The notes under the pieces: generated by a model
Told to the model about the DNA's origin: nothing
Database searches by the model: none
The model's input: the letters and a program-made list of their open reading frames with translations, nothing else
Sequence record: MK327941.1
Reading direction: 5' to 3' (one strand)
Source: Escherichia phage vB_EcoM_G37-3
Length of the DNA stretch: 64,000 nucleotides
Program-made: the position numbers and the translations under genes
Shown: positions 4,536-53,838 of the stretch, one piece after another
Layout: each line of letters begins with the position of its first letter
How positions within the stretch are numbered: the first letter of the stretch is position 1

Positions 4536-5105
4536 ATGGTTGAAATTCTTCCGATGAGTTCAAAATTGGAGGATATCAGCGAGCGAGAAATCTTTGAGGT
4601 GGTGTTCTCTTATAAAGCAACGCCACCGGATGCAAATACCACATACACGATTAAAGAGTTTAAGATCAGCGAGTATCGCCCTAATAAGGGCGTTACCGTT
4701 GAAGAAACTAAAATATCTGGTGAGTATCGGGATAGTTTTTCGCTTGGCGCGGATTCTCTTAAATATATAACGAAAGATAGAATTAAAAAATCTGCCGGAA
4801 GTTTTGATGATTTACCAGATCCAACTACCGCAGATCTATATTATTTTAACGCTCCTACACGTCTACAGGAGGTTTATACTTATAAAGTAACCCTAACCTA
4901 TATCCAATCTGTTTCAGAGTCTTCTGGTGGTTCTGGTGAAGGAAATAGTGGTGGTTCCAGTAGCCGAGAGGGTGCTGGTGAAACTAATCCGCCTCCGGTA
5001 GTAACCGAGCACACAATAGAGAAAGTTTATACTCAAACCGTTTTTGGAAATTGGGATGTGTGGAGTAAACAGTTAAGAGATTATGTTAGAAGAAGTGAGG
5101 GATAA
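4536..5105 (+). CDS. hypothetical protein at the T4 5.1 position, Gly/Ser-rich segment
   Basis: ORF track 189 aa, SD before ATG, coupled to gene 5; no recognisable motif. Confidence 0.55.
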   Translation: MVEILPMSSKLEDISEREIFEVVFSYKATPPDANTTYTIKEFKISEYRPNKGVTVEETKISGEYRDSFSLGADSLKYITKDRIKKSAGSFDDLPDPTTADLYYFNAPTRLQEVYTYKVTLTYIQSVSESSGGSGEGNSGGSSSREGAGETNPPPVVTEHTIEKVYTQTVFGNWDVWSKQLRDYVRRSEG

Positions 5106-5106
5106 T

Positions 5107-5646
5107 ATGATTGAAGTAATTCATTACACCAAAGAAGATGAAATTTTATATAATAGACTACATGAACTATTTTATGAAGTTGACGGAAAGGTTTATAGAA
5201 GGTTCTCTCGTGGACGTTCTAAAGCCGGAAGTCTAGTTGGTGGATTGAAGATAAATCCATGTGGATATAGATATTGGAGACTTGCTGTTGATGGTAAAGA
5301 GTTTCAGAGGTCTCATGTTGTTTATCATATGCATCACGGACACACTCCAAAAAAACCACTACAAATAGATCATATTAACACAAACTCCCTTGACGACCGA
5401 GTTAGCAATTTAAGACCAGTAACAGTTACTCAACAAATGTACAACCAAAATAAACAATCCGATTGCACATCTTCATATATTGGTGTTAATTGGAATAAAA
5501 ATTCCAAAAAATGGGAAGCTAGAATTAGAGCTAATGGAAAACGAATCCGTTTAGGTCTATTTGATAATGAAATTGACGCTGCGATTGCCTATAACACCGC
5601 TGCATTATCTAGAGATTCAAAAGTTAACAAATTAAACGATGTATGA
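5107..5646 (+). CDS. HNH homing-endonuclease-like protein with C-terminal AP2 DNA-binding domain
   Basis: HNH motif HHGHTPKKPLQIDHINTN..DDRVSNLRPVT; AP2-like YIGVNWNKNSKKWEARIRANGKRIRLGLFDNEIDAAIAYNTAA; start taken at ATG 5107 (GAGGGA SD) rather than track ATG 5083. Confidence 0.75.
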   Translation: MIEVIHYTKEDEILYNRLHELFYEVDGKVYRRFSRGRSKAGSLVGGLKINPCGYRYWRLAVDGKEFQRSHVVYHMHHGHTPKKPLQIDHINTNSLDDRVSNLRPVTVTQQMYNQNKQSDCTSSYIGVNWNKNSKKWEARIRANGKRIRLGLFDNEIDAAIAYNTAALSRDSKVNKLNDV

Positions 5647-5661
5647 GGATGGGGGTGTTTA

Positions 5662-5955
5662 ATGGCTGGATTATCCTACGATAAAGCTAAAACTACAGGG
5701 CACGGAAACTACCCACCTACTGTAATTAATGCAACTCAATCGAAGGTATTTGTTGAGGGTATCCCTGTATTAGTAGAAGGAGACCCAATTACACCACACA
5801 CAAAAACAACAAAGCCTTATGATACACACGGGGGAACTACGGTCGCCAGTACCCCGAAAGTCTTTGTTACCGGAAAGAAAGCAATTCAAATGGCAGATCG
5901 TATTAGCTGTGGCGATACCGTCGCTATGGCATCACCGAAGGTTTATATCAAATGA
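5662..5955 (+). CDS. 5.4: PAAR-repeat tail-spike tip protein gp5.4
   Basis: 97 aa, same length as T4 gp5.4 (from memory); overlaps gene 6 start (ATGA). Confidence 0.8.
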
Positions 5956-7854
5956 CAAAGCAAAAGATTACACAAATTCCTGATATTTTTAATGCTGCTA
6001 CATTCGATGAAATTAAAAGCGCATTAACAGACTGGATGAGAAACCAGGAAGAATTTAAAGATTTTGATTTTAATGGTGCTGGTATTAACGTATTGATGGA
6101 CTTGCTCGCATATAATACCCTTTATATTCAGCAATTCGCCAACGCCGCGCTATATGAATCTTTTATCAGAACGGCAATTAAGCGTAGTTCAGTTGTTCAA
6201 GCCGCGCAAGATTTAGGATATTTGCCAGCAAGTAAAACTAGTGCATCAACTACAATTATGTTGCATGTATCACATCCACGAAATCCGGCAAGTATTCGAA
6301 TCCCACGAGGAACTAAATTTATTGCAAGTGTGGACCGCCAGACGTCTTATCCGTTTGTTACTACAGAAGACGTTGTGAGCGTTTTAGGTTCAAATGGTTT
6401 ATATACTCCTATGCTTAAAGTCGCACAAGGTCGTATTGTTCGTACAGAAATGTTATTTGATCCGAAGAAACAAATTCTGATCCGCGATCCTGATATTGAC
6501 CGCGCTCAGGTTAAATTGTGGGTGGATGGGGCTGAATGGAAAGACTGGACGCGAGAAAGTATTGTTAATGCAACTGGCGCCAGTAATATTTTCTATATGC
6601 GTGAAACCGTAGACGGTCATACAGAAATCTTCTTTGGTGAAGGTGAATCAACTTTATCTGCTGCTGGCGGTGCACTGGAAGCAAATTATATTGGTGGACT
6701 TAAGCCGTCAACTGGTGCTAATATTGTTATTGAATATATTAGCACTAAAGGCGCGGAAGCAAACGGATCTGTCAATTTCACATACGCGGATACCCTTGCA
6801 TCTATCTCTATTGTTAAAATTATTGAGAATCCGACAAATGATCGTGATTATGTCGGTGCAGATGGTGGTGGTGATCCTGAATCAATCGAACGTATTCGTG
6901 AACTTGCTCCGGTAATGCGTGAATCTCAGCGTCGTTGTGTTACTGCTTCCGACTATGAGGCTTTTGTATCTAGCCGTTTTGGTAGTATTGTTCAGGCGGT
7001 ACAATGTTTCACCGATCGAGAAAAACCAGGTTATGCTTTTGTTGCTGTTAAGCCTAAATCTGGTTTGCGATTGACAACTATTCAAAAAGAAGATATGCGG
7101 GATTATCTGGCAAAATATAACCTTGCCCCTATCACACCGAGCATCATTGACCCTAACTATCTGTATATTAAACAGAATATTAAAGTTTCCTATTCAATCA
7201 ATGACTTATCAGAATCAGAGCAGTGGTTGCGCGGTGCGGTTATTGATCAGATTGATGCATATTATACCGACGAAGTGGAAATTTTTAACCAGACCTTTAG
7301 TAAGTCTAAAATGCTTGCGCGTATTGACAAAGCTGATGTATCTGTGATAGGTTCTAGTGCAGAAATAGAGATGGTTCGAGAGATCGACAACTTCTATAAA
7401 GCACCTATGGCGGGAATCAAGTTTTTAAACCAGTATAAGAGCGGAATCAAGTCTAGTTCGTTCAACTTCGAAAAGGACGGTAAACAATACCCGATCCATT
7501 ATGTAAGTACAGAAATGAACAAAGAATCCGGTTTAGCTAAATTGCTGGTTGGACCTTTCCCTGTTGATTCTACAATCGCTTTACCGCACTTCCGGCACTG
7601 ATTTTGATAAAGAGGTTATTGACGGTGCGGACCTATACTTTGAGGTTGGAGAGGTTCAGCATTATGACGACCTTATTTCATGGGATCTGGGTAAACTGAA
7701 TATCAATAGCGATCGCTTTACTGGTTCATATATTGAGTTGACAGCTAAACCGATTGCTGATAACATCTTTACTAAAGACGGTTCTTTGATCGTGTTTGAA
7801 AACGATCTCCGTCCTCAGTACACAACTATTAGTCTGGAGGCAATTGCTCAATGA
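5952..7854 (+). CDS. 6: baseplate wedge protein gp6, interrupted by an apparent +1 frameshift near 7550-7600
   Basis: Track ORF 5952..7601 (549 aa) continues in +1 frame as 7549..7854 (track start is TTG, i.e. not a real start); combined ~635 aa vs T4 gp6 660 aa; 3' end overlaps gene 7 start. Confidence 0.75.
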
Positions 7855-10800
7855 TTAAAGCGCCTAGTGTAACTAGCTTGACAATAGAAAAATTGTCTGC
7901 TAATCAGGCGTATATCACATGGGATGACGTAGGCGAAAACTTCTTTTATTTTGTGGAGTTAGCCGAAACCAGAACACGAGACGGGGAGATCATCCCCGTC
8001 GATGAGTTAAGCTGGGTAAACCTGGGATATACTGCCGAACAAAACTGGTTTGAGGATAAAAACCTTTTTCCAGAATATTATTACAAGTTTCGTGTAGCAG
8101 TAGCCGCAGAAGGATTTGAACAAAGTAAATGGGTTGAGACAGAAGAGTTTCAGACATTTAAAACAAACGCATATAATTTTTCTATGATGCGAGAGTTCAA
8201 CCTTGCAAACGAGTTTATAAAGGAAAAATTTACATACGATAATCGAGAGTATGTCAAGTTTAATACCGACCTTATTCAAGCATCATTGATGAAGGAAGAT
8301 TTTGTCTTTAGTCCTGAATATGCAAACATGACAAATATCTCAAACTACATTGTAGTTGATGAGAACTTTCATGAAATACAGGACCACATAGAAAAAGTTT
8401 GTACTGATATAAACCACACTATGTTAGCGGAAATGAACGGTGTTTTGTACCTTTTCGAACGGTTCCAGCCGATCGTGAAAGTGTCAAATGATAAAGGCCA
8501 ATCATGGAAGGCATACAAGGCTTTTAATGACCGTGTAGGCAATCCGGTTTCCCGTACATGCGTTTATCAGTCTAAAACCACTACTTACGTTTTAGGATAT
8601 GACCGAATCTTTTACGGACGACAAGCGAGCGATACTCGATGGAGCGCGGACGATGTTCGATTTAGTGATGATACGATCACTTTTGCAAAGGTCGGTGACG
8701 AAAACGATTTAGGCTTTGACGTTGAGGTCTTTGGTGTATTTTCCAGATTAACAGGTGATACCACAAAATACGCCGAAGCTATGGCGTGTAGTGATGACTA
8801 TTTGTGGGTTGGTGCTAAAGATGTTATTCGCCGGATTCGTCTTAAGAATACTCCTGTTGATACCGTACAGGGTTCGCCTACGTTTGGAGAAAAAATATTC
8901 GATCCTGATGTTATCCGAGTAACAGGAAATGATAAAGCTGTCATTCAGAAAATGGATGTGGTCGACGGTAAATTGCTTGTATTTGTTACGGGTGAAGTTA
9001 AACAGCGTTATCAAGATCCAACTAAACCAGAAAACGTTGTTCCGTCAGATGATGCGGGTGTATACTTAATAGGGAGTGATGGTCTGTCTTTTCAGAGAGT
9101 ATTTGGCAACACTCCGCAGGAAAGGGAATATATTCAGCATGGGTTCAGTAATATGTCAACCAATGGTGATGAGGTGTTCATAAGCCATTATAATCATCAC
9201 TTCGAAAGCATTTTACCTGATCCAGAAACTGCCGAGAAATATGAATTGGGAGAAGCTGTAAAATATTCTCATGAGCCAACTTATCTAACTGATAAGAAAA
9301 TACATCAAACTACTTTCAGAGCAAGTTATGATGATTTGCGTATTTGGGAGTTAGGACCGCAAGCGTATTATAATGAGGCCGATTATACATGGATGCGTCG
9401 AAACGGTGTCCGTGTGTGGATCACAAATGATAATCGCCCGTTGGTTGTTTATCCAGAGGTTATCTATACTCAAGAAGTTGATACATCTGGCATTCTTGAC
9501 CAAAATAGGATCAACCGAGAAGTTTATGATAAAGGGACCGTGACCTGTTATCTTAACAATGTTAAATTTGAAGGATTCAAACAATATGCATCCGGTGTAA
9601 TGTTCCATAAAAACACAGGAGAGATCATAGGATTCTATCAATTTAATTATCGTGTTCGTGATCAGGTTGGTGTATATTGGAAACCTACAAATGTAGCATT
9701 TGTTGCTGAATTGCAAAATCAGGTTCGAGAGGTTCCCTGGGTTCCGGTTCACTACGATCGAGAGCAAGATCCAGATTTGCGGCCTTTACTGAATAAGATG
9801 ACCCCTGATAGCTTTTTACTTGAGAACGAAAATTTCAGAAAATTCTCTGAATATTATCTGCAATTCTTAAGCGATGGTTCAGGAACATATTATAATAAAC
9901 TAAAAAATCTGATTAAAAACAAATATCCACGCGAGAAAGATGCATATGAGTATCTTTGGTCAGAGATGAACAAACGAAACATCTATGCAGATAAAAACAA
10001 GCGAGATGCGGTAGTAAGATTCTTTGAATCCCGCAAATCAGATTTTTATTCCACTAAGGGCGTGGAGGCTTCTTATAAGTTCTTGTTTAAGTTACTTTAT
10101 AATGAAGATGTGGAAATTGAGGTTGAATCACAAGCCGGACTAGAGTATGATATTGTTGTTAGTTCAACGAACATTGACGAGGATATCGTAGGTCGCACGA
10201 TTTATACTCCAACCGGACGGGCTAACGTGACGTATCTTGAAAGGGAATATGAAGGTGGTCGCCTACGCTGGCGAGTAACCATTCATAACCTGATCGGGCG
10301 GTTCGAAGAAGGTCAAGTGATCAAATCAGAGAAAACAGCGTTTGAAGGGATGATCCTTGTTGGTGTACGTGGTAAAGAGTTGTTGAGTAGTTCAATCGAC
10401 TATATCAACCGCTCACGAAGCCAATACACCATGAAGATTAAAAGTGCATTGCCAGTTTCGCGCTATGCAAATGATGTAATGCGATTCGTTCATCCTGTCG
10501 GCTTTGGGTTTATCGGTGTTACCCTGCTTACGATGTTCATTAACAGCGGGTTGAGCATGAAGCACACCGAGACGATAATTCAATCTCTGAAAAATTATAA
10601 GTTTGACAGCGGATTGCCTAGCGTGTATCCTGATCGGGTGGCAGACCTTGACGTTGACGGAAACATTAAGAAAGACCCGCTTACCGGAAAAGCATTATAT
10701 TTGACTTCACCTTTAATCGGTGATGAATTTCCGGTTCCTCCTGAATATGATCAGGAGAACAGCGAATTGTTCCACGGACTTAAAGCAAGCGAACGAAGAT

Positions 10801-10937
10801 TTGCAATGAGTCCACTGTTTGACCAGTCGGCGGTAACATTCTCTATGTTCCGTGAGCTTGTGGATAAACGGTTGAAGGATAATATAGGGAATCCACGCGA
10901 TCCGAAGAATCCGACACAGAGGAAAATTAATGGCTAA
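7851..10937 (+). CDS. 7: baseplate wedge protein gp7
   Basis: 1028 aa (T4 gp7 1032 aa from memory); position. Confidence 0.8.
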   Translation: MIKAPSVTSLTIEKLSANQAYITWDDVGENFFYFVELAETRTRDGEIIPVDELSWVNLGYTAEQNWFEDKNLFPEYYYKFRVAVAAEGFEQSKWVETEEFQTFKTNAYNFSMMREFNLANEFIKEKFTYDNREYVKFNTDLIQASLMKEDFVFSPEYANMTNISNYIVVDENFHEIQDHIEKVCTDINHTMLAEMNGVLYLFERFQPIVKVSNDKGQSWKAYKAFNDRVGNPVSRTCVYQSKTTTYVLGYDRIFYGRQASDTRWSADDVRFSDDTITFAKVGDENDLGFDVEVFGVFSRLTGDTTKYAEAMACSDDYLWVGAKDVIRRIRLKNTPVDTVQGSPTFGEKIFDPDVIRVTGNDKAVIQKMDVVDGKLLVFVTGEVKQRYQDPTKPENVVPSDDAGVYLIGSDGLSFQRVFGNTPQEREYIQHGFSNMSTNGDEVFISHYNHHFESILPDPETAEKYELGEAVKYSHEPTYLTDKKIHQTTFRASYDDLRIWELGPQAYYNEADYTWMRRNGVRVWITNDNRPLVVYPEVIYTQEVDTSGILDQNRINREVYDKGTVTCYLNNVKFEGFKQYASGVMFHKNTGEIIGFYQFNYRVRDQVGVYWKPTNVAFVAELQNQVREVPWVPVHYDREQDPDLRPLLNKMTPDSFLLENENFRKFSEYYLQFLSDGSGTYYNKLKNLIKNKYPREKDAYEYLWSEMNKRNIYADKNKRDAVVRFFESRKSDFYSTKGVEASYKFLFKLLYNEDVEIEVESQAGLEYDIVVSSTNIDEDIVGRTIYTPTGRANVTYLEREYEGGRLRWRVTIHNLIGRFEEGQVIKSEKTAFEGMILVGVRGKELLSSSIDYINRSRSQYTMKIKSALPVSRYANDVMRFVHPVGFGFIGVTLLTMFINSGLSMKHTETIIQSLKNYKFDSGLPSVYPDRVADLDVDGNIKKDPLTGKALYLTSPLIGDEFPVPPEYDQENSELFHGLKASERRFAMSPLFDQSAVTFSMFRELVDKRLKDNIGNPRDPKNPTQRKING

Positions 10938-33727: not shown

Positions 33728-33755
33728 GGGAAGACTCGAAAGGGTCTTCCCTTTT
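33728..33755 (+). terminator. rho-independent terminator after gene 23
   Basis: gggaagac-N8-gtcttccc followed by TTTT; a second hairpin gtcgggt-gcaat-acccgac lies at 33668-33686. Confidence 0.6.
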
Positions 33756-33771
33756 GCGTATTATATCCCGT

Positions 33772-33779
33772 TATAAATA
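33772..33779 (+). promoter_or_regulatory. late promoter motif TATAAATA in the 23-24 spacer
   Basis: Exact motif; no ORF immediately downstream. Confidence 0.4.
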
Positions 33780-34142
33780 AGGTTGCAAGCCTATATTCTA
33801 TTTGGAGCGAAAATAGATACACACAACAAAGACAGGAAGATGCAGAACATCGGTGGGTTGCGATCCTAAATCCGGTGGCTATGATATGTGATTGATTTTG
33901 ATGCGGGATTTATTAAAACACAACAAACAATTCCACCAATTTTCGTAGTAACTGCATGGCAAAGGACCAATGAATGAGATGAGCGTTCATGCTGTGATAT
34001 TGGGTCGGATAGATTTGGTAGATATACAGATCTGGTGTATGCCGACCTTGTTATGACATTCCAGCGTGACGCTAGCGGTAATTTTTTGGTTTTGGTACGC
34101 TGTTCCCTGAATTAACCCAAAATTCTCCATAAGGAGGAATGC

Positions 34143-34295
34143 ATGAGTAAGAAAGAAAACAGCTATGTTATGACTCGTAAGGAATACAACGAATTGATGT
34201 TAGCATTAGCTTATGCAATTATTCGTTCTGATCATGCAATTAATCTGGTAAACAAAGTTAACCGTAGCGTTGATAATGTTTCTAGGAAGAAGTAA
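34143..34295 (+). CDS. hypothetical small protein (50 aa)
   Basis: AAGGAGG SD 6 nt upstream of ATG; MSKKENSYVMTRKEYNELML...; below the ORF-track length cutoff. Confidence 0.5.
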   Translation: MSKKENSYVMTRKEYNELMLALAYAIIRSDHAINLVNKVNRSVDNVSRKK

Positions 34296-34334
34296 GTTTA
34301 TTTTTGGAATCCTTTGGATTCCTTTTTCTTTTTG

Positions 34335-37779: not shown

Positions 37780-38990
37780 TTAAGCAGGATGCGTTTCACG
37801 AATGCGTAGAACTCGCTCTAACGTCGCTCGGTCCAGCTTATGTAACTCTTTGGAATGATACATGAAACCATTGCGAGATTCCATGCAAGTGCAATCACTA
37901 TATTTTTCTTCCGCTGCCGCGATCGTCTCCAGATCTTTGGCGTACTTGCTGGTTGAATAAACTTCTCGATCACGCCACTCTAACCCAGCCTCATTGAATT
38001 TAACAATCTCGTCAAATACCCACCATCCAATGTAGATAAATGAAGTTTTGCGCCACGGGATCGGGTGTACGTAACGAAACATTTTAACAACTTCCATTGA
38101 ACATTTTCGGCTTGTACTTGCTGCAACTTCTACTGTTTCATCTTCGATCTGTTGATATAGTTTAGCAACACACCAGAATTTGGCTGTGTCATCGTAAGTA
38201 GCACTCTCTTTGAACAGATGACCGTCTGGCATGATAGAAAATCCTTCCAGTGCTTCGCCGACCTCACTACCGATTAGAGTCGGTGACGGTTGCCCTTCGC
38301 GCTGCAAATACCAGTTATATTTGATCGTCAATTAGGCATACCGCTAGAATCGCCTACAATGTCCTCTGACACAACATAATTAAGTGATATCTCATTACCT
38401 AGTGCCACGGTCTTTGATTCCACCACATCCTGATCTACGTTCATTGTTGCCAGCATGATTTTAGTCGATGCGCTAGCGGCTGAATCTTCCGACTCGCCCC
38501 ACTTTTACAGTATACACGCCGTTTTTATCTGCTGTAAATTCTTGGATCGTAATATCCTTTTTTGTGTCTATAACGTCATCGCCCTTACTCCAACTATAAT
38601 GTAGTTCATAGTTGTCTGCTGGAGTCTTCCCACCAGAAAAATTGACTGTTGCATGTAATTCTACGTCTGTTTGTGATGATACGTAGAATGCTGCGGTTCG
38701 GTGATATTTACGATTAATGCAGCTTCTTCCATGAGGAAAACTTCAGATTCTACTGATGTCATCGTATCGGTATCTTGTACCGTTACTTTATAGCTACCCG
38801 CATTTTCACTTGTTGCGTCTGCTACAGTTAGCGTAGCTGTGCTATTTTCATGCGGTTGGTCGTCTTTTGTCCATGTATATGTCAAATTGCTGGGTAATGG
38901 TTCGTCACCCGCTACAGTCGCCGTTAAGGTGAAACCATCTCCAGCAAGAAAACATCTTTTGTTAGATTGTATTGATACTGTGAAAGCCAT
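37780..38990 (-). pseudogene. hoc: hoc (outer capsid decoration protein) split over four reading-frame segments
   Basis: Track ORFs 38661..38990 (Ig-like: LTYTWTKDDQ..SYKVTV) and 37780..38331 (FRYVHPIPWRKTSFIYIGWWVFDEI..ESRNGF resembles T4 Hoc C-terminal capsid-binding domain); the 330-bp gap translates as further Ig-like segments in two other frames. Confidence 0.7.
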
Positions 38991-39330: not shown

Positions 39331-40056
39331 TTACTTGAGTGTGTGGAATTGGCTATGTTTAGTCTCTCGCACCTTGACAGACCCATCGCGTTTGATATAA
39401 TAGATCAGTGACTTGAGGGTGTCGTGTACATACGCGTGTGGGAAACGCTCTGGATACTTCTTCCAATCTGGAGTATTAACGATCCAGTCGAAAATCCACC
39501 ACGGGCAGGAGTAGTAACCACGACCGCCACCGATCAAACAAATGGTTGGACGGAAACCAGTAAGATCGCAAAATGAATCAGTGTCATGTGCAGGAGAACG
39601 ATGTTCGGCTTCGTCAGAGAAAATGTTTGCTACCGGAGATTTCACTTTAACTTCCGGTGCTTCTTCAACATCTGACTTAACTTCTTCGACCACTGGTTCA
39701 ACTGCTGGAGATTCTTCTTTTGTTTCTTCAATGACGATCTCAGGTTCTTTCATTGCTTCAACCAGAGACGGATCAACTTCGTCGAATACTACTTTATCAT
39801 CTGCGGTGTCTGCTGCCAGAATAAGATCGTTAATACTGGTTCCTTCTGCCGGAGTTTCTTCTTCCATTTCGGAAGCCAGTTTAGTTAATTCGGTTTCTAC
39901 GAACTCGATCATGTTCTCTAGTGAGAACGTCTTTTTGACCTTAATATCAAATTGTTTTGCGTAGTCCGCTAATTCTGTTTTAGCGGTTTTCTGTGCTTCT
40001 TTGTCGTCGGACGCCGCAATAGCGCGGAGTTCTTCGAAATATTCTTTATCAAACAT
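39331..40056 (-). CDS. acidic protein at the T4 inh position (possible inhibitor of prohead protease)
   Basis: 241 aa; Glu-rich middle; position upstream of hoc as inh in T4 (from memory); identity not verified. Confidence 0.4.
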   Translation of the reverse strand: MFDKEYFEELRAIAASDDKEAQKTAKTELADYAKQFDIKVKKTFSLENMIEFVETELTKLASEMEEETPAEGTSINDLILAADTADDKVVFDEVDPSLVEAMKEPEIVIEETKEESPAVEPVVEEVKSDVEEAPEVKVKSPVANIFSDEAEHRSPAHDTDSFCDLTGFRPTICLIGGGRGYYSCPWWIFDWIVNTPDWKKYPERFPHAYVHDTLKSLIYYIKRDGSVKVRETKHSQFHTLK

Positions 40057-40082
40057 GTTATTCTCCTGATTGGGGGTGTTTG

Positions 40083-40090
40083 TATAAATA
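40083..40090 (+). promoter_or_regulatory. late promoter motif TATAAATA upstream of uvsW
   Basis: Exact motif about 37 nt upstream of ATG 40127. Confidence 0.5.
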
Positions 40091-40126
40091 TTTGTATACT
40101 GTATTTATTGAGTGAGGCTATTCGCT

Positions 40127-41814
40127 ATGCAAGATATTAAATTCACTTTCTGAACTACTCCCATGTTCAAATTGAATGTAGCGATTCAATTTTATTAGAA
40201 ATGCGAGATTATTTTAGTTTTGAAGTCGAGGGAGCGCGGTTTCAAAAAAGATTTAAGTATGGTGGATGGGATGGGCGTATTCGTCTTTTAGATTACAACG
40301 GAAAGCTGCCAATCGGTCTAACTAAAACCGTGGGAATCTTCGCTAAAAATATGGGCTATAGCGTATGGGTAGATCCTCGCTTATTCGAAAAAGAACAAGT
40401 TACAGAAGAAGAAATTACAAAATGGTGTAATAACTTAGAATTATATTCCGGTGCTAACAGGATCACCCCTCATTGGTATCAATCAAAGGCCGTCTTTGAA
40501 GGTATTTCATCATAAACGCCGTATGTTAGTTTTGCCTACGTCCGCTGGTAAATCTGCGATTGCTTGTATGTTGTCTCGTTGGTACTTAGAGAATTACGAA
40601 GGGAAAGTGTTGATCATCGTTCCTACCACGTCGCTAGTGCTGCAAATGCGTGATGACTTTGTTGATTATCGCCAGTTTCCTTATGAAGCAATTCATACTA
40701 TCATGAGCGGTACTAGTAAACACGTAGGTGATCGCCTGATCGTTGTTAGTACGTGGCAATCTGCATGTAAACAACCTAGTGAGTGGTTCCAACAATTCGG
40801 GATGGTTATTGTTGACGAATGTCACAAGGCCACTGCTAAAACCTGCTAAACATCGTTACTGATATGGATCATTGTCAATTTAAGATCGGCATGACTGGTT
40901 CCCCTCGTGACGGGAAAGCTAACATGATGCAGTATGTCGGGCTTTTCGGTGATATTTCTAAGATCGTGAGTATTGACCGCCTGATGGAAGAAGGGCAGGT
41001 GACAAAACTGAAAATTAACTGTCTTTTCCTTCGTTATACCGATGAGGAATAGCGCGGTTAAGGGGCGAGAATATGCGGAAGAGATCAAGTACATTACATC
41101 TAACCCACGACGAAATAAGTTTGCTTGTAATTTGGCGCTAAAACTCGCTAAGAAGGGCGAAAACGTATTCCTGATGTTCCGCAACACTAAGCACTGAAAA
41201 TTAACTGTCTTTTCCTTCGTTATACCGATGAGGAATGTAGCGCGGTTAAGGGGCGAGAATATGCGGAAGAGATCAAGTACATTACATCTAACCCACGACG
41301 AAATAAGTTTGCTTGTAATTTGGCGCTAAAACTCGCTAAGAAGGGCGAAAACGTATTCCTGATGTTCCGCAACACTAAGCACGGAAAACTTATGTATGAT
41401 GCGTTACAGAAGGTACACGACAAGGTTTATTATATTGACGGTGGAGTTAAGACAGAAGAACGTGATGAATTTAAGAAATTAGCGGAAGGGGAAACCGGGA
41501 TCATTTGCGTTGCATCCTATGGTGTGTTCTCTACTGGTGTTTCCATCAAGAATTTGCATCATGTTATTTTCGGTCATCCAGTGAAGGAATCAACTATCGT
41601 TCGTCAGAGTATCGGTCGTGCATTGCGTAAACATGGTTCTAAGGATATTGCAACGGTCTGGGATCTTATAGATCATCTGGCGGTGAAGACAAAGAGCAAT
41701 AATGCTAAGAAACAGTTTAGCCACCTTAATTATGCTCTTAAACATGCGCTTGAAAGAATAAAAATTTACAACACCGATCGATTCGAATATGTCACGAAAA
41801 CAATCGAGATTTAA
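40127..41814 (+). pseudogene. uvsW: uvsW (RNA-DNA/DNA-DNA helicase) disrupted by at least three frameshifts and an internal tandem duplication
   Basis: Pieces MQDIK (40127), frame A to 40515, frame B to 40849, frame C 40840..41052, frame C 41191..41814; each aligns to consecutive segments of T4 UvsW as recalled (FSFE..RF..RFKYGGWDGRIRLLDYN, LPTSAGKS, DECH, SPRDGKANMMQYVG, HGSKDIATVWDLID). Confidence 0.75.
41007..41380 (+). repeat. perfect tandem duplication inside uvsW (copy 1 41007-41192, 186 bp; copy 2 41193-41380, 188 bp)
   Basis: Copies identical except a 2-bp (gt) deletion in copy 1 that creates TAG at 41050-41052. Confidence 0.85.
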
Positions 41815-41818
41815 TAAA

Positions 41819-41842
41819 TAGGGGCTTTAATGCCCCTTTATT
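41819..41842 (+). terminator. rho-independent terminator after uvsW
   Basis: aggggc-tttaat-gcccct followed by T-rich tract. Confidence 0.55.
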
Positions 41843-41857
41843 CTACGGAGATTAAAA

Positions 41858-42094
41858 ATGATTAGCTTTAAACGTTTTTTGGTTGAGGCCGCTATTGACG
41901 GTTTCATGCGTAAGATTTATTCTTGTAATACTATCGAGGGATTAAATGAACTTGAGGCATATTATGAGAAGCGCAAGAAAGAAACAGAATTGAAACCTGC
42001 TGATGATATTTCGATCCGTGATGCCATCGCTGGACGCCGTAAGCAATTGGAAGCGGACAACGAGCCAGAAGAGGAGCCGGAAGAGGATTTTTAA
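41858..42094 (+). CDS. hypothetical acidic protein at the uvsW.1 position
   Basis: 78 aa ORF track; GGAG SD; position matches T4 uvsW.1. Confidence 0.5.
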   Translation: MISFKRFLVEAAIDGFMRKIYSCNTIEGLNELEAYYEKRKKETELKPADDISIRDAIAGRRKQLEADNEPEEEPEEDF

Positions 42095-45763: not shown

Positions 45764-46281
45764 TGACAGAAACTAAACCTATGTTAAAATTTGTTGTTCC
45801 TGTAAAAAAATTAGAGATAAACGGGAAACATATCAAGATCCCAAAAATGGGGATTAAGCAACATCGATTATTAAAAGATGTTCGTAGCTGTGATGAAACA
45901 TTAAAGATTCTTCTTGATTCAATCTGTCCTGGGTTAAACGCTGCCGAGTCTGAATTGGTTATGCTTAACCTTTGTGCGTTTAATGGTAAGTGTCTGGAAG
46001 AAAAAGATGGTCTTAAGCTGTCTGATGTGTATATTTGTACAGAGACTGAATTTACTTTAAATGGTAAAGTCTTTAAATTTAAAAATCCAATGTATACTTC
46101 TGACCCCATTATCGATGACGCTGATTTCTTGAGTCATCATTATCACGATCCTAGTGTAGACTTCCATGATTTCCCAGCTTTTATTATGGATTGGGCTACA
46201 GGATTAAGAAAAACTATTGCACTGGATACACCGGAAGGTACTATCTATGGTGGAATTAACATATTGGATCGCCTATCATGA
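45763..46281 (+). CDS. 28: baseplate hub distal subunit gp28
   Basis: 172 aa (T4 177); position. Confidence 0.7.
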   Translation: MTETKPMLKFVVPVKKLEINGKHIKIPKMGIKQHRLLKDVRSCDETLKILLDSICPGLNAAESELVMLNLCAFNGKCLEEKDGLKLSDVYICTETEFTLNGKVFKFKNPMYTSDPIIDDADFLSHHYHDPSVDFHDFPAFIMDWATGLRKTIALDTPEGTIYGGINILDRLS

Positions 46282-46305
46282 ATGACGCATTAACATCATT
46301 TCGGG

Positions 46306-48009
46306 ATGCGCAAGGAAGCGGAAGAAAACCCGATTGATAAACTTAACAAATTAGATAAACTTGATTCTATTGATAATTTGCAAGCCGCTACCGAATTGGT
46401 GGCGGAGACAGTGGAACAAAAATCTAATGAAGTTGTTGGTGCGGTAGAGGATAACACCGCAGCCAATGAATTGACGGCAGAAAATACACAATCTACCGCT
46501 GGCAATACCCAAAAAACTTATGAAGAATTGCAAAAACTCAATAATTTCTCTTCTCAGATGAATGAGAAATTACGTGGTTTTGGTGTTATGATGGAACGTA
46601 GATTTGGTGTTGTCAGTAAAATGGCTAGCGGTATTGGTGCGATTGAAGAAGCATTGAAAAAACCGGAACAACCGCAAACAATGCCATCACCTCAGCCAGT
46701 TTTGCCTACTGTGCCGGAACAGCCTAATAATGACAACTATCAAGGTCTTCCAAAGAAAAAACCAGATGTTGAGGAACGGAAGAAAAAGAACGCCACAGAT
46801 AAGCGTAATGCAGATTCTATGGAAAATCTTCTTAAAGTTGTTCGTGGAGGATTTAAAGAAACCATAGGTATCTCTAATAAGGTCTTAGGGATGTTATTTA
46901 AGATCACTTTGACCGCTATGGCAGAAGCCGCAAAATGGGGTGCTATTTTGATGGGTATTGTTTTTGTCATTGATACCCTGATGGTTCATTTCAGATATTG
47001 GAGCGATTTATTCGAGACAAAGTTCAGTGAATTTATGGATAAGGCCGGAGAATGGGCTGGTCCTATTAGCGATATTTTAACTACTGTTCGTCAGGTTCGA
47101 GATTATTGGTCTAAAGGCGAATATGGGGAGTTAATTAAATCTCTTGTTATGGGTATTGGTGATGCATTCTATAAAACCTTTATCCAACTTGATCGAATTA
47201 TCACTACTGGTATTGCTAAAATTCTTCGCATGATCCCTGGTATGGGTGATTATGCCGATAAGTTAGAATATGGTGCTTTAAAATCTGCTGTCGCTCAAGG
47301 CTATACGCCAAATGAAAGAGAACTCGAATTAATGGATAAGATCGAGTCTGAACACGAAGAAGACAAATATGGAGAGCGCACAGGATGGACAGGAAAAGCC
47401 CGTGATATTGGCGAAGCTATTGGGGATTCTATTAAGGATAAAGTTAACGAAGGTCTTGTTAGTCTGGGCTGGAGAGATCAAAAGGATGTTGACGCAGAGA
47501 AACGACAAGAAGAATTAAAACGCGGGGAATATAAGTCTGTTTCTGCTGAACAACGATCTGCTAGTCGTAAACTTAGAATTAAAAGCGAGGGCGCGATCAA
47601 TAATATTAATGAAGTTATGGAGAATTTGAGCGGTGACTATGACAAAGAAAGAATGGGAGAGTTGAAAAAGGATATTGATGTTTACCGTGAGCAAGTTCAA
47701 GATCCTACATTAGTTGAAAGTGATCGTTCTCAGTTAGAGCGTCTTATTGAAAAATTTGATGAGATGTATGCTGATAAAACTAAGGGTGTGGTTCCAACTA
47801 ATCCTGTTCCTGCAACTGAAACGGAAACAGCAAAACAAGCGGAACGTACTGAACAAATGCAGAAACAAGCTGCAATCCAGCAACAAACGACAAATCAGAC
47901 CTCAAACGTAAATAATACACAAATTGTAACAAACAATAGAACTATTAAACAGGGTGCACCAACAACTAGAATTGATGCTCCCGGTACAATTAATATGGGG
48001 AACTTTTAA
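46306..48009 (+). CDS. 29: baseplate hub / tail length determinator gp29
   Basis: 567 aa (T4 590); hydrophobic segment and position. Confidence 0.7.
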   Translation: MRKEAEENPIDKLNKLDKLDSIDNLQAATELVAETVEQKSNEVVGAVEDNTAANELTAENTQSTAGNTQKTYEELQKLNNFSSQMNEKLRGFGVMMERRFGVVSKMASGIGAIEEALKKPEQPQTMPSPQPVLPTVPEQPNNDNYQGLPKKKPDVEERKKKNATDKRNADSMENLLKVVRGGFKETIGISNKVLGMLFKITLTAMAEAAKWGAILMGIVFVIDTLMVHFRYWSDLFETKFSEFMDKAGEWAGPISDILTTVRQVRDYWSKGEYGELIKSLVMGIGDAFYKTFIQLDRIITTGIAKILRMIPGMGDYADKLEYGALKSAVAQGYTPNERELELMDKIESEHEEDKYGERTGWTGKARDIGEAIGDSIKDKVNEGLVSLGWRDQKDVDAEKRQEELKRGEYKSVSAEQRSASRKLRIKSEGAINNINEVMENLSGDYDKERMGELKKDIDVYREQVQDPTLVESDRSQLERLIEKFDEMYADKTKGVVPTNPVPATETETAKQAERTEQMQKQAAIQQQTTNQTSNVNNTQIVTNNRTIKQGAPTTRIDAPGTINMGNF

Positions 48010-53494: not shown

Positions 53495-53562
53495 TTTATA
53501 TCCTCTAGTTGATAACCTATAAACCTATATTTATGAAAACGGGGCTTAACGCCCCCTTTTTA

Positions 53563-53775
53563 TTATAATGCACCATCGAGCAATTGCTCTAAGGTGTATC
53601 CTGAATAGTCTTTTTCAATCAGGATATATTTTCCTACTCGTTTAATACAACCGCGCATTTCAACATATTCTGCGTAGTTGATGGTGCGAGTTGTTCCATC
53701 TTCTAGCAAAGCAGTACCGATTTCGTTAATGCGGTCATAAGTTACGTAGGTAATGATGATTTCGATGTTAGCCAT
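53563..53775 (-). CDS. hypothetical protein (70 aa from ATG 53775)
   Basis: Track ORF 53563..53841; start moved to internal ATG with AAGGAG SD because the upstream codons overlap the promoter element. Confidence 0.5.
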   Translation of the reverse strand: MANIEIIITYVTYDRINEIGTALLEDGTTRTINYAEYVEMRGCIKRVGKYILIEKDYSGYTLEQLLDGAL

Positions 53776-53809
53776 TTGATACTCCTTAGTAGTTCGTTTC
53801 GGTATGTGT

Positions 53810-53838
53810 ATTATAGGGGATCGATGATCCCCTGTCAA
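53810..53838 (-). promoter_or_regulatory. PeSL-like early promoter cassette: TTGACA, 17-nt palindromic spacer (ggggatc..gatcccc), TATAAT, conserved leader
   Basis: Reverse complement gives TTGACAggggatcatcgatccccTATAAT; A-tract upstream. Confidence 0.6.

Follow-up and report, generated by a model that had tools for sequence, protein, structure and literature searches.

In the sequence record of Escherichia phage vB_EcoM_G37-3 (MK327941.1), gene 6, which encodes the baseplate wedge protein gp6, is interrupted by a 2-bp deletion at 7589..7592 on the plus strand. Coordinates are those of the window, the stretch of 64,000 nucleotides that we analysed. We consider it very likely that the deletion is an error of the deposited or assembled sequence, whether from base-calling, consensus or assembly, and not a feature of the replicating phage, whose DNA would be expected to lack it. 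The loss of TA, private to this record, shifts the last 86 codons of gene 6 into the +1 frame, and in the real phage the gene is most likely a single 634-aa ORF ending in an ATGA overlap with gene 7. The site was located by alignment with the gene 6 regions of phages G5211 and RB49, by the spans of BLAST matches and by repair of the reading frame.

Layout of gene 6 in the window

The upstream reading frame of gene 6 (5952..7601, plus strand), read from the ORF list and the raw sequence, encodes 549 aa. It runs from an ATG at 5952 to a premature TGA at 7599-7601 and ends in ...ALPHFRH-TGA, with 547 native residues and an F-R-H contributed by the shifted frame. The displaced 3' part (7591..7854, plus strand) lies in the +1 frame and contains the last 86 native residues, SGTDFDKE...EAIAQ, followed by the stop. 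From 7537 this frame has no stop codon before the one at 7852-7854, and in the 64-nt zone 7537-7601 both frames are open. The mechanically listed ORF in the +1 frame (7549..7854, 101 aa) has a TTG start, and the frame arithmetic (5952 = 0 and 7549 = 1 modulo 3) places the continuation in the +1 frame. The 2-bp deletion and the TGA that it brings into frame leave the window without a single uninterrupted gene 6 ORF.

Gene 7, the baseplate wedge initiator (7851..10937, plus strand), is intact, with 1028 aa and 100% identity to gp7 of G5211. Its ATG at 7851 overlaps the native gene 6 stop as ATGA, and the gene order 5.4 - 6 - 7, with overlapping stop and start codons, is that of a gp6-type gene. 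The ORF list and raw sequence bear out the initial annotation, which had gene 6 stopping at 7601 with a +1-frame continuation to 7854 over the gene 7 ATG, and its assignment of the two genes to gp6 and gp7 in a coupled overlap was correct. It had estimated a combined length of ~635 aa; a near-full gp6 is indeed rebuilt, and with exactly 634 aa it matches all relatives in length. The frame change that it described as a +1 frameshift is likewise real, but the defect is a 2-bp deletion and not a 1-bp insertion.

Comparison with related phages

A megablast of the window against 50,697 phage records assigned it to the genus Krischvirus, the RB49-like T4-type phages. Of these records, that of Escherichia phage vB_EcoM_G5211 (MK327947) is the closest, at 99.3% across 24 kb. 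In both G5211 and RB49 the corresponding region is one 1905-nt CDS, annotated as gp6 baseplate wedge subunit, between gene 5.4 and gene 7. The window has the synteny 5.1 - HNH - 5.4 - 6 - 7, including the overlap of start and stop codons, in common with G5211 (gene 6: MK327947.1, QBO66380.1) and RB49 (gene 6: AY343333, AAL15102.2), but differs from both in being without the two bases at 7589-7592, and its gene 6 appears as two ORFs.

The alignment of the window with G5211 and RB49 contains one gap. At this point the window reads CAC joined directly to TTCC, whereas all relatives have CAC-TA-TTCC (CGCAC-TA-TTCCGG), their sequence around the gap being ...TTTACCGCAC-TA-TTCCGGCACTGAT... The missing bases are TA or, equivalently, AT, as the placement is ambiguous within C-T-T. 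A sensitive BLAST search with 7490-7690 as the query found the two extra bases in 58/58 Krischvirus records, with spans of 202-203 bases against 200-201 query bases, and gp6 is intact at 634 aa in 58/58.

Re-inserting TA after 7589 produces a 1905-nt ORF of 634 aa that is identical to G5211 gene 6 at 1905/1905 nt. The repaired gp6 differs from that of RB49 at 3 residues. The 2-bp gap is the sole difference from G5211 over ~27 kb (about 5.0 to 31.9 kb), with zero substitutions. Compared with RB49, the window has 0 differences in the 265 nt downstream of the junction and 52 in the 1640 nt upstream, and from the sequence the downstream part of gene 6 appears free of decay. Long-term pseudogenisation of gene 6 was rejected, given zero substitutions relative to G5211 in and around the gene.

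Exact-match scans of IMG/VR, JGI metagenome contigs and GTDB genomes did not find the deletion allele, while the wild-type allele was matched exactly by 2 IMG/VR contigs; on this evidence we rejected the idea that the deletion is a natural allele of some lineage. Nor did the assembly collection have an exact match to the truncated 549-aa protein.

The divided protein and its T4 counterpart

The repaired gp6 is homologous to T4 gp6 from end to end, with residues 7-634 aligned to 15-660 (5hx2_D, E=1.1e-237). It contains five Pfam gp6 domains above their curated cut-offs (Gp6-like_1st, Gp6_2nd, Gp6_C-I, Gp6_C-III and gp6_C-domII), all of them in common with T4 gp6 (PDB 3H2T, 5IV5, 5HX2). The T4 protein has 660 aa and the RB49-type protein, which is interrupted in the window, has 634 aa and is 26 residues shorter.

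The upstream ORF holds four complete domains and the first half of gp6_C-domII (PF21472). This domain is divided between the two ORFs, with profile positions 2-61 matched upstream (E=1e-6) and 76-118 downstream (E=5e-10). Because the ORFs hold the halves of one Pfam domain, they are not a chance pairing. The deletion also costs the protein a Tyr codon, and this Tyr is conserved as far as T4 gp6 in the motif P-Y-[ST]-G-x-D-F-x-K, which reads P-Y-S-G-T-D-F-D-K in proteins of the window type and P-Y-T-G-N-D-F-N-K in T4.

T4 needs gene 6 to assemble its wedges and baseplate (PMC3004832). The crystallised C-terminal portion of T4 gp6 (residues 334-660) represents an inter-wedge dimer, and the ring formed by gp6 acts as the 'inter-wedge glue' of the baseplate (PMC3004832). 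By analogy with T4, a gp6 without its last 86 residues and half a domain would be expected to be defective or non-functional, because the break falls inside PF21472, in the part that forms the T4 inter-wedge dimer.

Other private indels in the record

We checked the quality of the window by comparing it with G5211 and GEC-3S and by tblastn of all G5211 proteins. Gene 29, hoc and uvsW are disrupted as well as gene 6, and the window contains at least 8 more private frame-breaking indels in these three genes.

Gene 29 encodes the baseplate hub protein that determines tail length, and its product is listed among the T4 tail proteins (PMC3004832). Two bases are missing from it at ~46302-46305 (CGCG to CG), some eight or nine codons after the start, where TTTCGCGGG has become TTTCGGG (window 46278-46320); the two extra bases are present in 58/58 relatives. 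The native start, ATG 46278, now leads to a 19-aa peptide, and the remainder of gp29 can be read from an ATG in its own frame at 46306, giving 567 aa as against 577 aa.

The hoc gene (37780-38990, minus strand) carries three private indels, -1 at ~38330, -2 at ~38500 and -1 at ~38687, and the region 38280-38740 is 4 bases longer in 56/56 matched relatives. In uvsW (40127-41814) there are four, -1 at 40139, +1 at 40505, -1 at 40838 and -2 at 41050; 54/55 relatives are 3 bases longer here and 1/55 is 2 bases longer. Part of uvsW is also duplicated in tandem. The copies, of 186/188 bp, lie at 41007-41192 and 41193-41380, differ by the -2 deletion and have their junction at a short microhomology.

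Several private indels of the kind seen in gene 29, hoc and uvsW lie in homopolymers or very short dinucleotide repeats, and inspection by eye of the indel sites showed no consistent methylation or sequence motif common to them. The indels cluster in 33.7-41.2 kb, directly upstream of the duplication junction, in an indel-dense tract of 33.7-41.4 kb, and their indel-to-substitution ratio greatly exceeds the one seen elsewhere in the window. Several independent frame-breaking indels per gene without an excess of substitutions are characteristic of consensus errors and not of evolution. Together, the tract and the duplication look like a low-quality contig end at an untrimmed join in a circularly permuted genome, and the uvsW duplication itself may be the untrimmed assembly junction.

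Small indels relative to both G5211 and GEC-3S are also present at 33750-34330, the interval between genes 23 and 24, and at 53550-53810. They lie in intergenic or tiny-ORF sequence, mostly T/A runs and TG repeats, and could be natural length variation or more consensus errors.

We favour a sequencing or assembly error in gene 6 because gene 29, hoc and uvsW carry further private frame-breaking indels. The gene 6 deletion is found in one record only, its flanks are identical to those of the close relative G5211, and the other breaks, including the three indels of hoc and the four indels and tandem duplication of uvsW, are all private as well. The initial annotation had also preferred an indel error, and the intact gene in 58/58 relatives, the identity of the repaired gene to that of G5211, the lack of frameshift signals and the other private indels all support this reading. 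Two observations run counter to it. The sequence context, CACTATTCC, is not a homopolymer, and the deletion is therefore not of the commonest platform-error kind. It is also separated from the indel-dense tract by ~26 kb, and the stretch around it shows no other defect.

Alternative explanations

The deletion might instead be real: a loss-of-function mutation, not a functional feature, that arose very recently in the sequenced DNA. We think this unlikely. Such an allele could come from a defective genome complemented in a high-titre lysate, or from a variant that reached the consensus by chance. Zero substitutions relative to G5211 over ~27 kb and the lack of downstream decay are what would be expected of a very young mutation. 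Real disruption of hoc and uvsW is conceivable too, as both are dispensable in T4, but three or four indels in each without an excess of substitutions look like errors and not like the decay of a pseudogene. Since gene 6 is essential in T4 (PMC3004832), a lethal allele would not be expected to become the main type in a stock that is being propagated, and gene 29, whose product is also on the T4 list of tail proteins (PMC3004832), bears the same kind of 2-bp deletion.

It is highly improbable that the phage tolerates a genuine deletion because some of its ribosomes slip +1 close to the junction and make a near-native full-length gp6 (...ALPHF-GTDFDKE...). The junction codons are CAC UUC CGG CAC UGA, and the candidate slip site is UUC-CGG. 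Few Arg codons are as rare as CGG in the 27 structural genes of the window, where it has a frequency of 2.7 per 1000 (AGG, 2.3). It lies just 5' of the stop, within the 7537-7601 zone that is open in both frames; moreover, only 12 copies of gp6 are needed per virion (PMC3004832). Against this, the frameshift is conserved in 0/58 Krischvirus relatives, and a signal cannot have evolved for a mutation without surrounding substitutions. After a +1 slip from UUC to UCC, tRNA-Phe would probably re-pair poorly.

Recoding signals were likewise missing from the sequence around the junction. A motif scan of 7500-7620 found no prfB-like CUU-UGA, antizyme-like UCC-UGA or Ty-like CUU-AGG, in agreement with the earlier statement that no slippery site or prfB-like stop context was visible. 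There is no homopolymer run in 7537-7601 and no SD-like element (GGAGG, AGGA or GAGG) upstream of the junction. The fold of the 95 nt downstream (7596-7690) is not significant (z = -1.49), as 15/200 shuffles fold as well. The likeness to known programmed +1 frameshifting, in E. coli prfB, antizyme and yeast Ty1/Ty3, is in geometry only, with a 0-frame stop soon after the switch to +1; unlike these, gene 6 lacks conservation of the shift, a shift-prone motif at the stop, an SD-like stimulator upstream and a significant structure downstream.

Programmed +1 or -2 frameshifting was rejected on the 0/58 conservation, the lack of a slippery or stop-context motif and of an SD-like element, and the non-significant fold. 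The initial annotation had ranked a low-efficiency programmed shift below an indel error without fully excluding it. That ranking stands, and with no conservation of the shift we regard the programmed form as effectively excluded. The UUC-CGG before the stop would permit unprogrammed low-level slippage at most and is only a faint lead. There is very little chance that the deletion is present in a viable phage that obtains enough full-length gp6 by such slippage at UUC-CGG. If it were, gene 6 would be a naturally occurring case in which ribosomes that shift frame spontaneously rescue an essential structural gene.

Assembly of gp6 from two polypeptides, of 549 aa and about 86-101 aa, held together non-covalently, is more improbable still, although the downstream frame is still open and the native coupling to gene 7 is kept: the split falls in the middle of a single domain, PF21472, and none of the 58 Krischvirus records has a split gp6. 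The initial annotation had noted that the +1-frame continuation lacks a real start. This is correct, as there is no ATG or GTG near the junction and none after it in the downstream frame; the sole downstream-frame starts nearby are TTG 7549 and TTG 7564, neither with an SD-like sequence upstream. Independent expression of the C-terminal piece was rejected on the lack of ATG/GTG and SD near the junction and on the split inside one domain. Even taken jointly, functional recoding and a split gp6 are very unlikely.

Annotation of the record

With an error as the preferred reading, the appropriate annotation of gene 6 is a single gene of 634 aa in which the suspected 2-bp error is flagged. It should be neither divided into a truncated gp6 and a hypothetical protein of 101 aa nor described as recoding. 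The record as a whole should be flagged for several indel errors, which affect genes 29, hoc and uvsW, and for what is probably an assembly junction left untrimmed, as these errors matter to users of the sequence in comparative or engineering work. If the deletion were true in a viable phage, it would be an interesting case of a tolerated C-terminal defect in gp6.

Genome context

By nucleotide comparison the genome is mosaic, because the flanks of one long segment diverge from G5211 or match other Krischviruses better. This segment of about 27 kb (~5000-31900), which begins with gene 5.1 and extends to gene 22, has 100% nucleotide identity to G5211 except for the gene 6 deletion, and the segments on either side are only about 96-99% identical to G5211 or are closer to other Krischviruses. 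An ORF for an HNH homing endonuclease (5083-5646) lies between genes 5.1 and 5.4, as in G5211.

The uvsW gene of the window is a better match to those of GEC-3S and Phi1 than to that of G5211, whose 5' part is only about 74% identical to the window. In G5211 a GIY-YIG endonuclease gene (41154-41885) lies just upstream of uvsW, and it is absent from the window (40056-40127). The divergence of the 5' part of G5211 uvsW fits endonuclease-associated gene conversion. Among the relatives, the record of phage vB_Eco_TB34 (OX001802.1) has 1093 and not 1094 bases over the uvsW query and two annotated helicase CDSs, which suggests that it may carry an independent 1-bp frameshift in uvsW.
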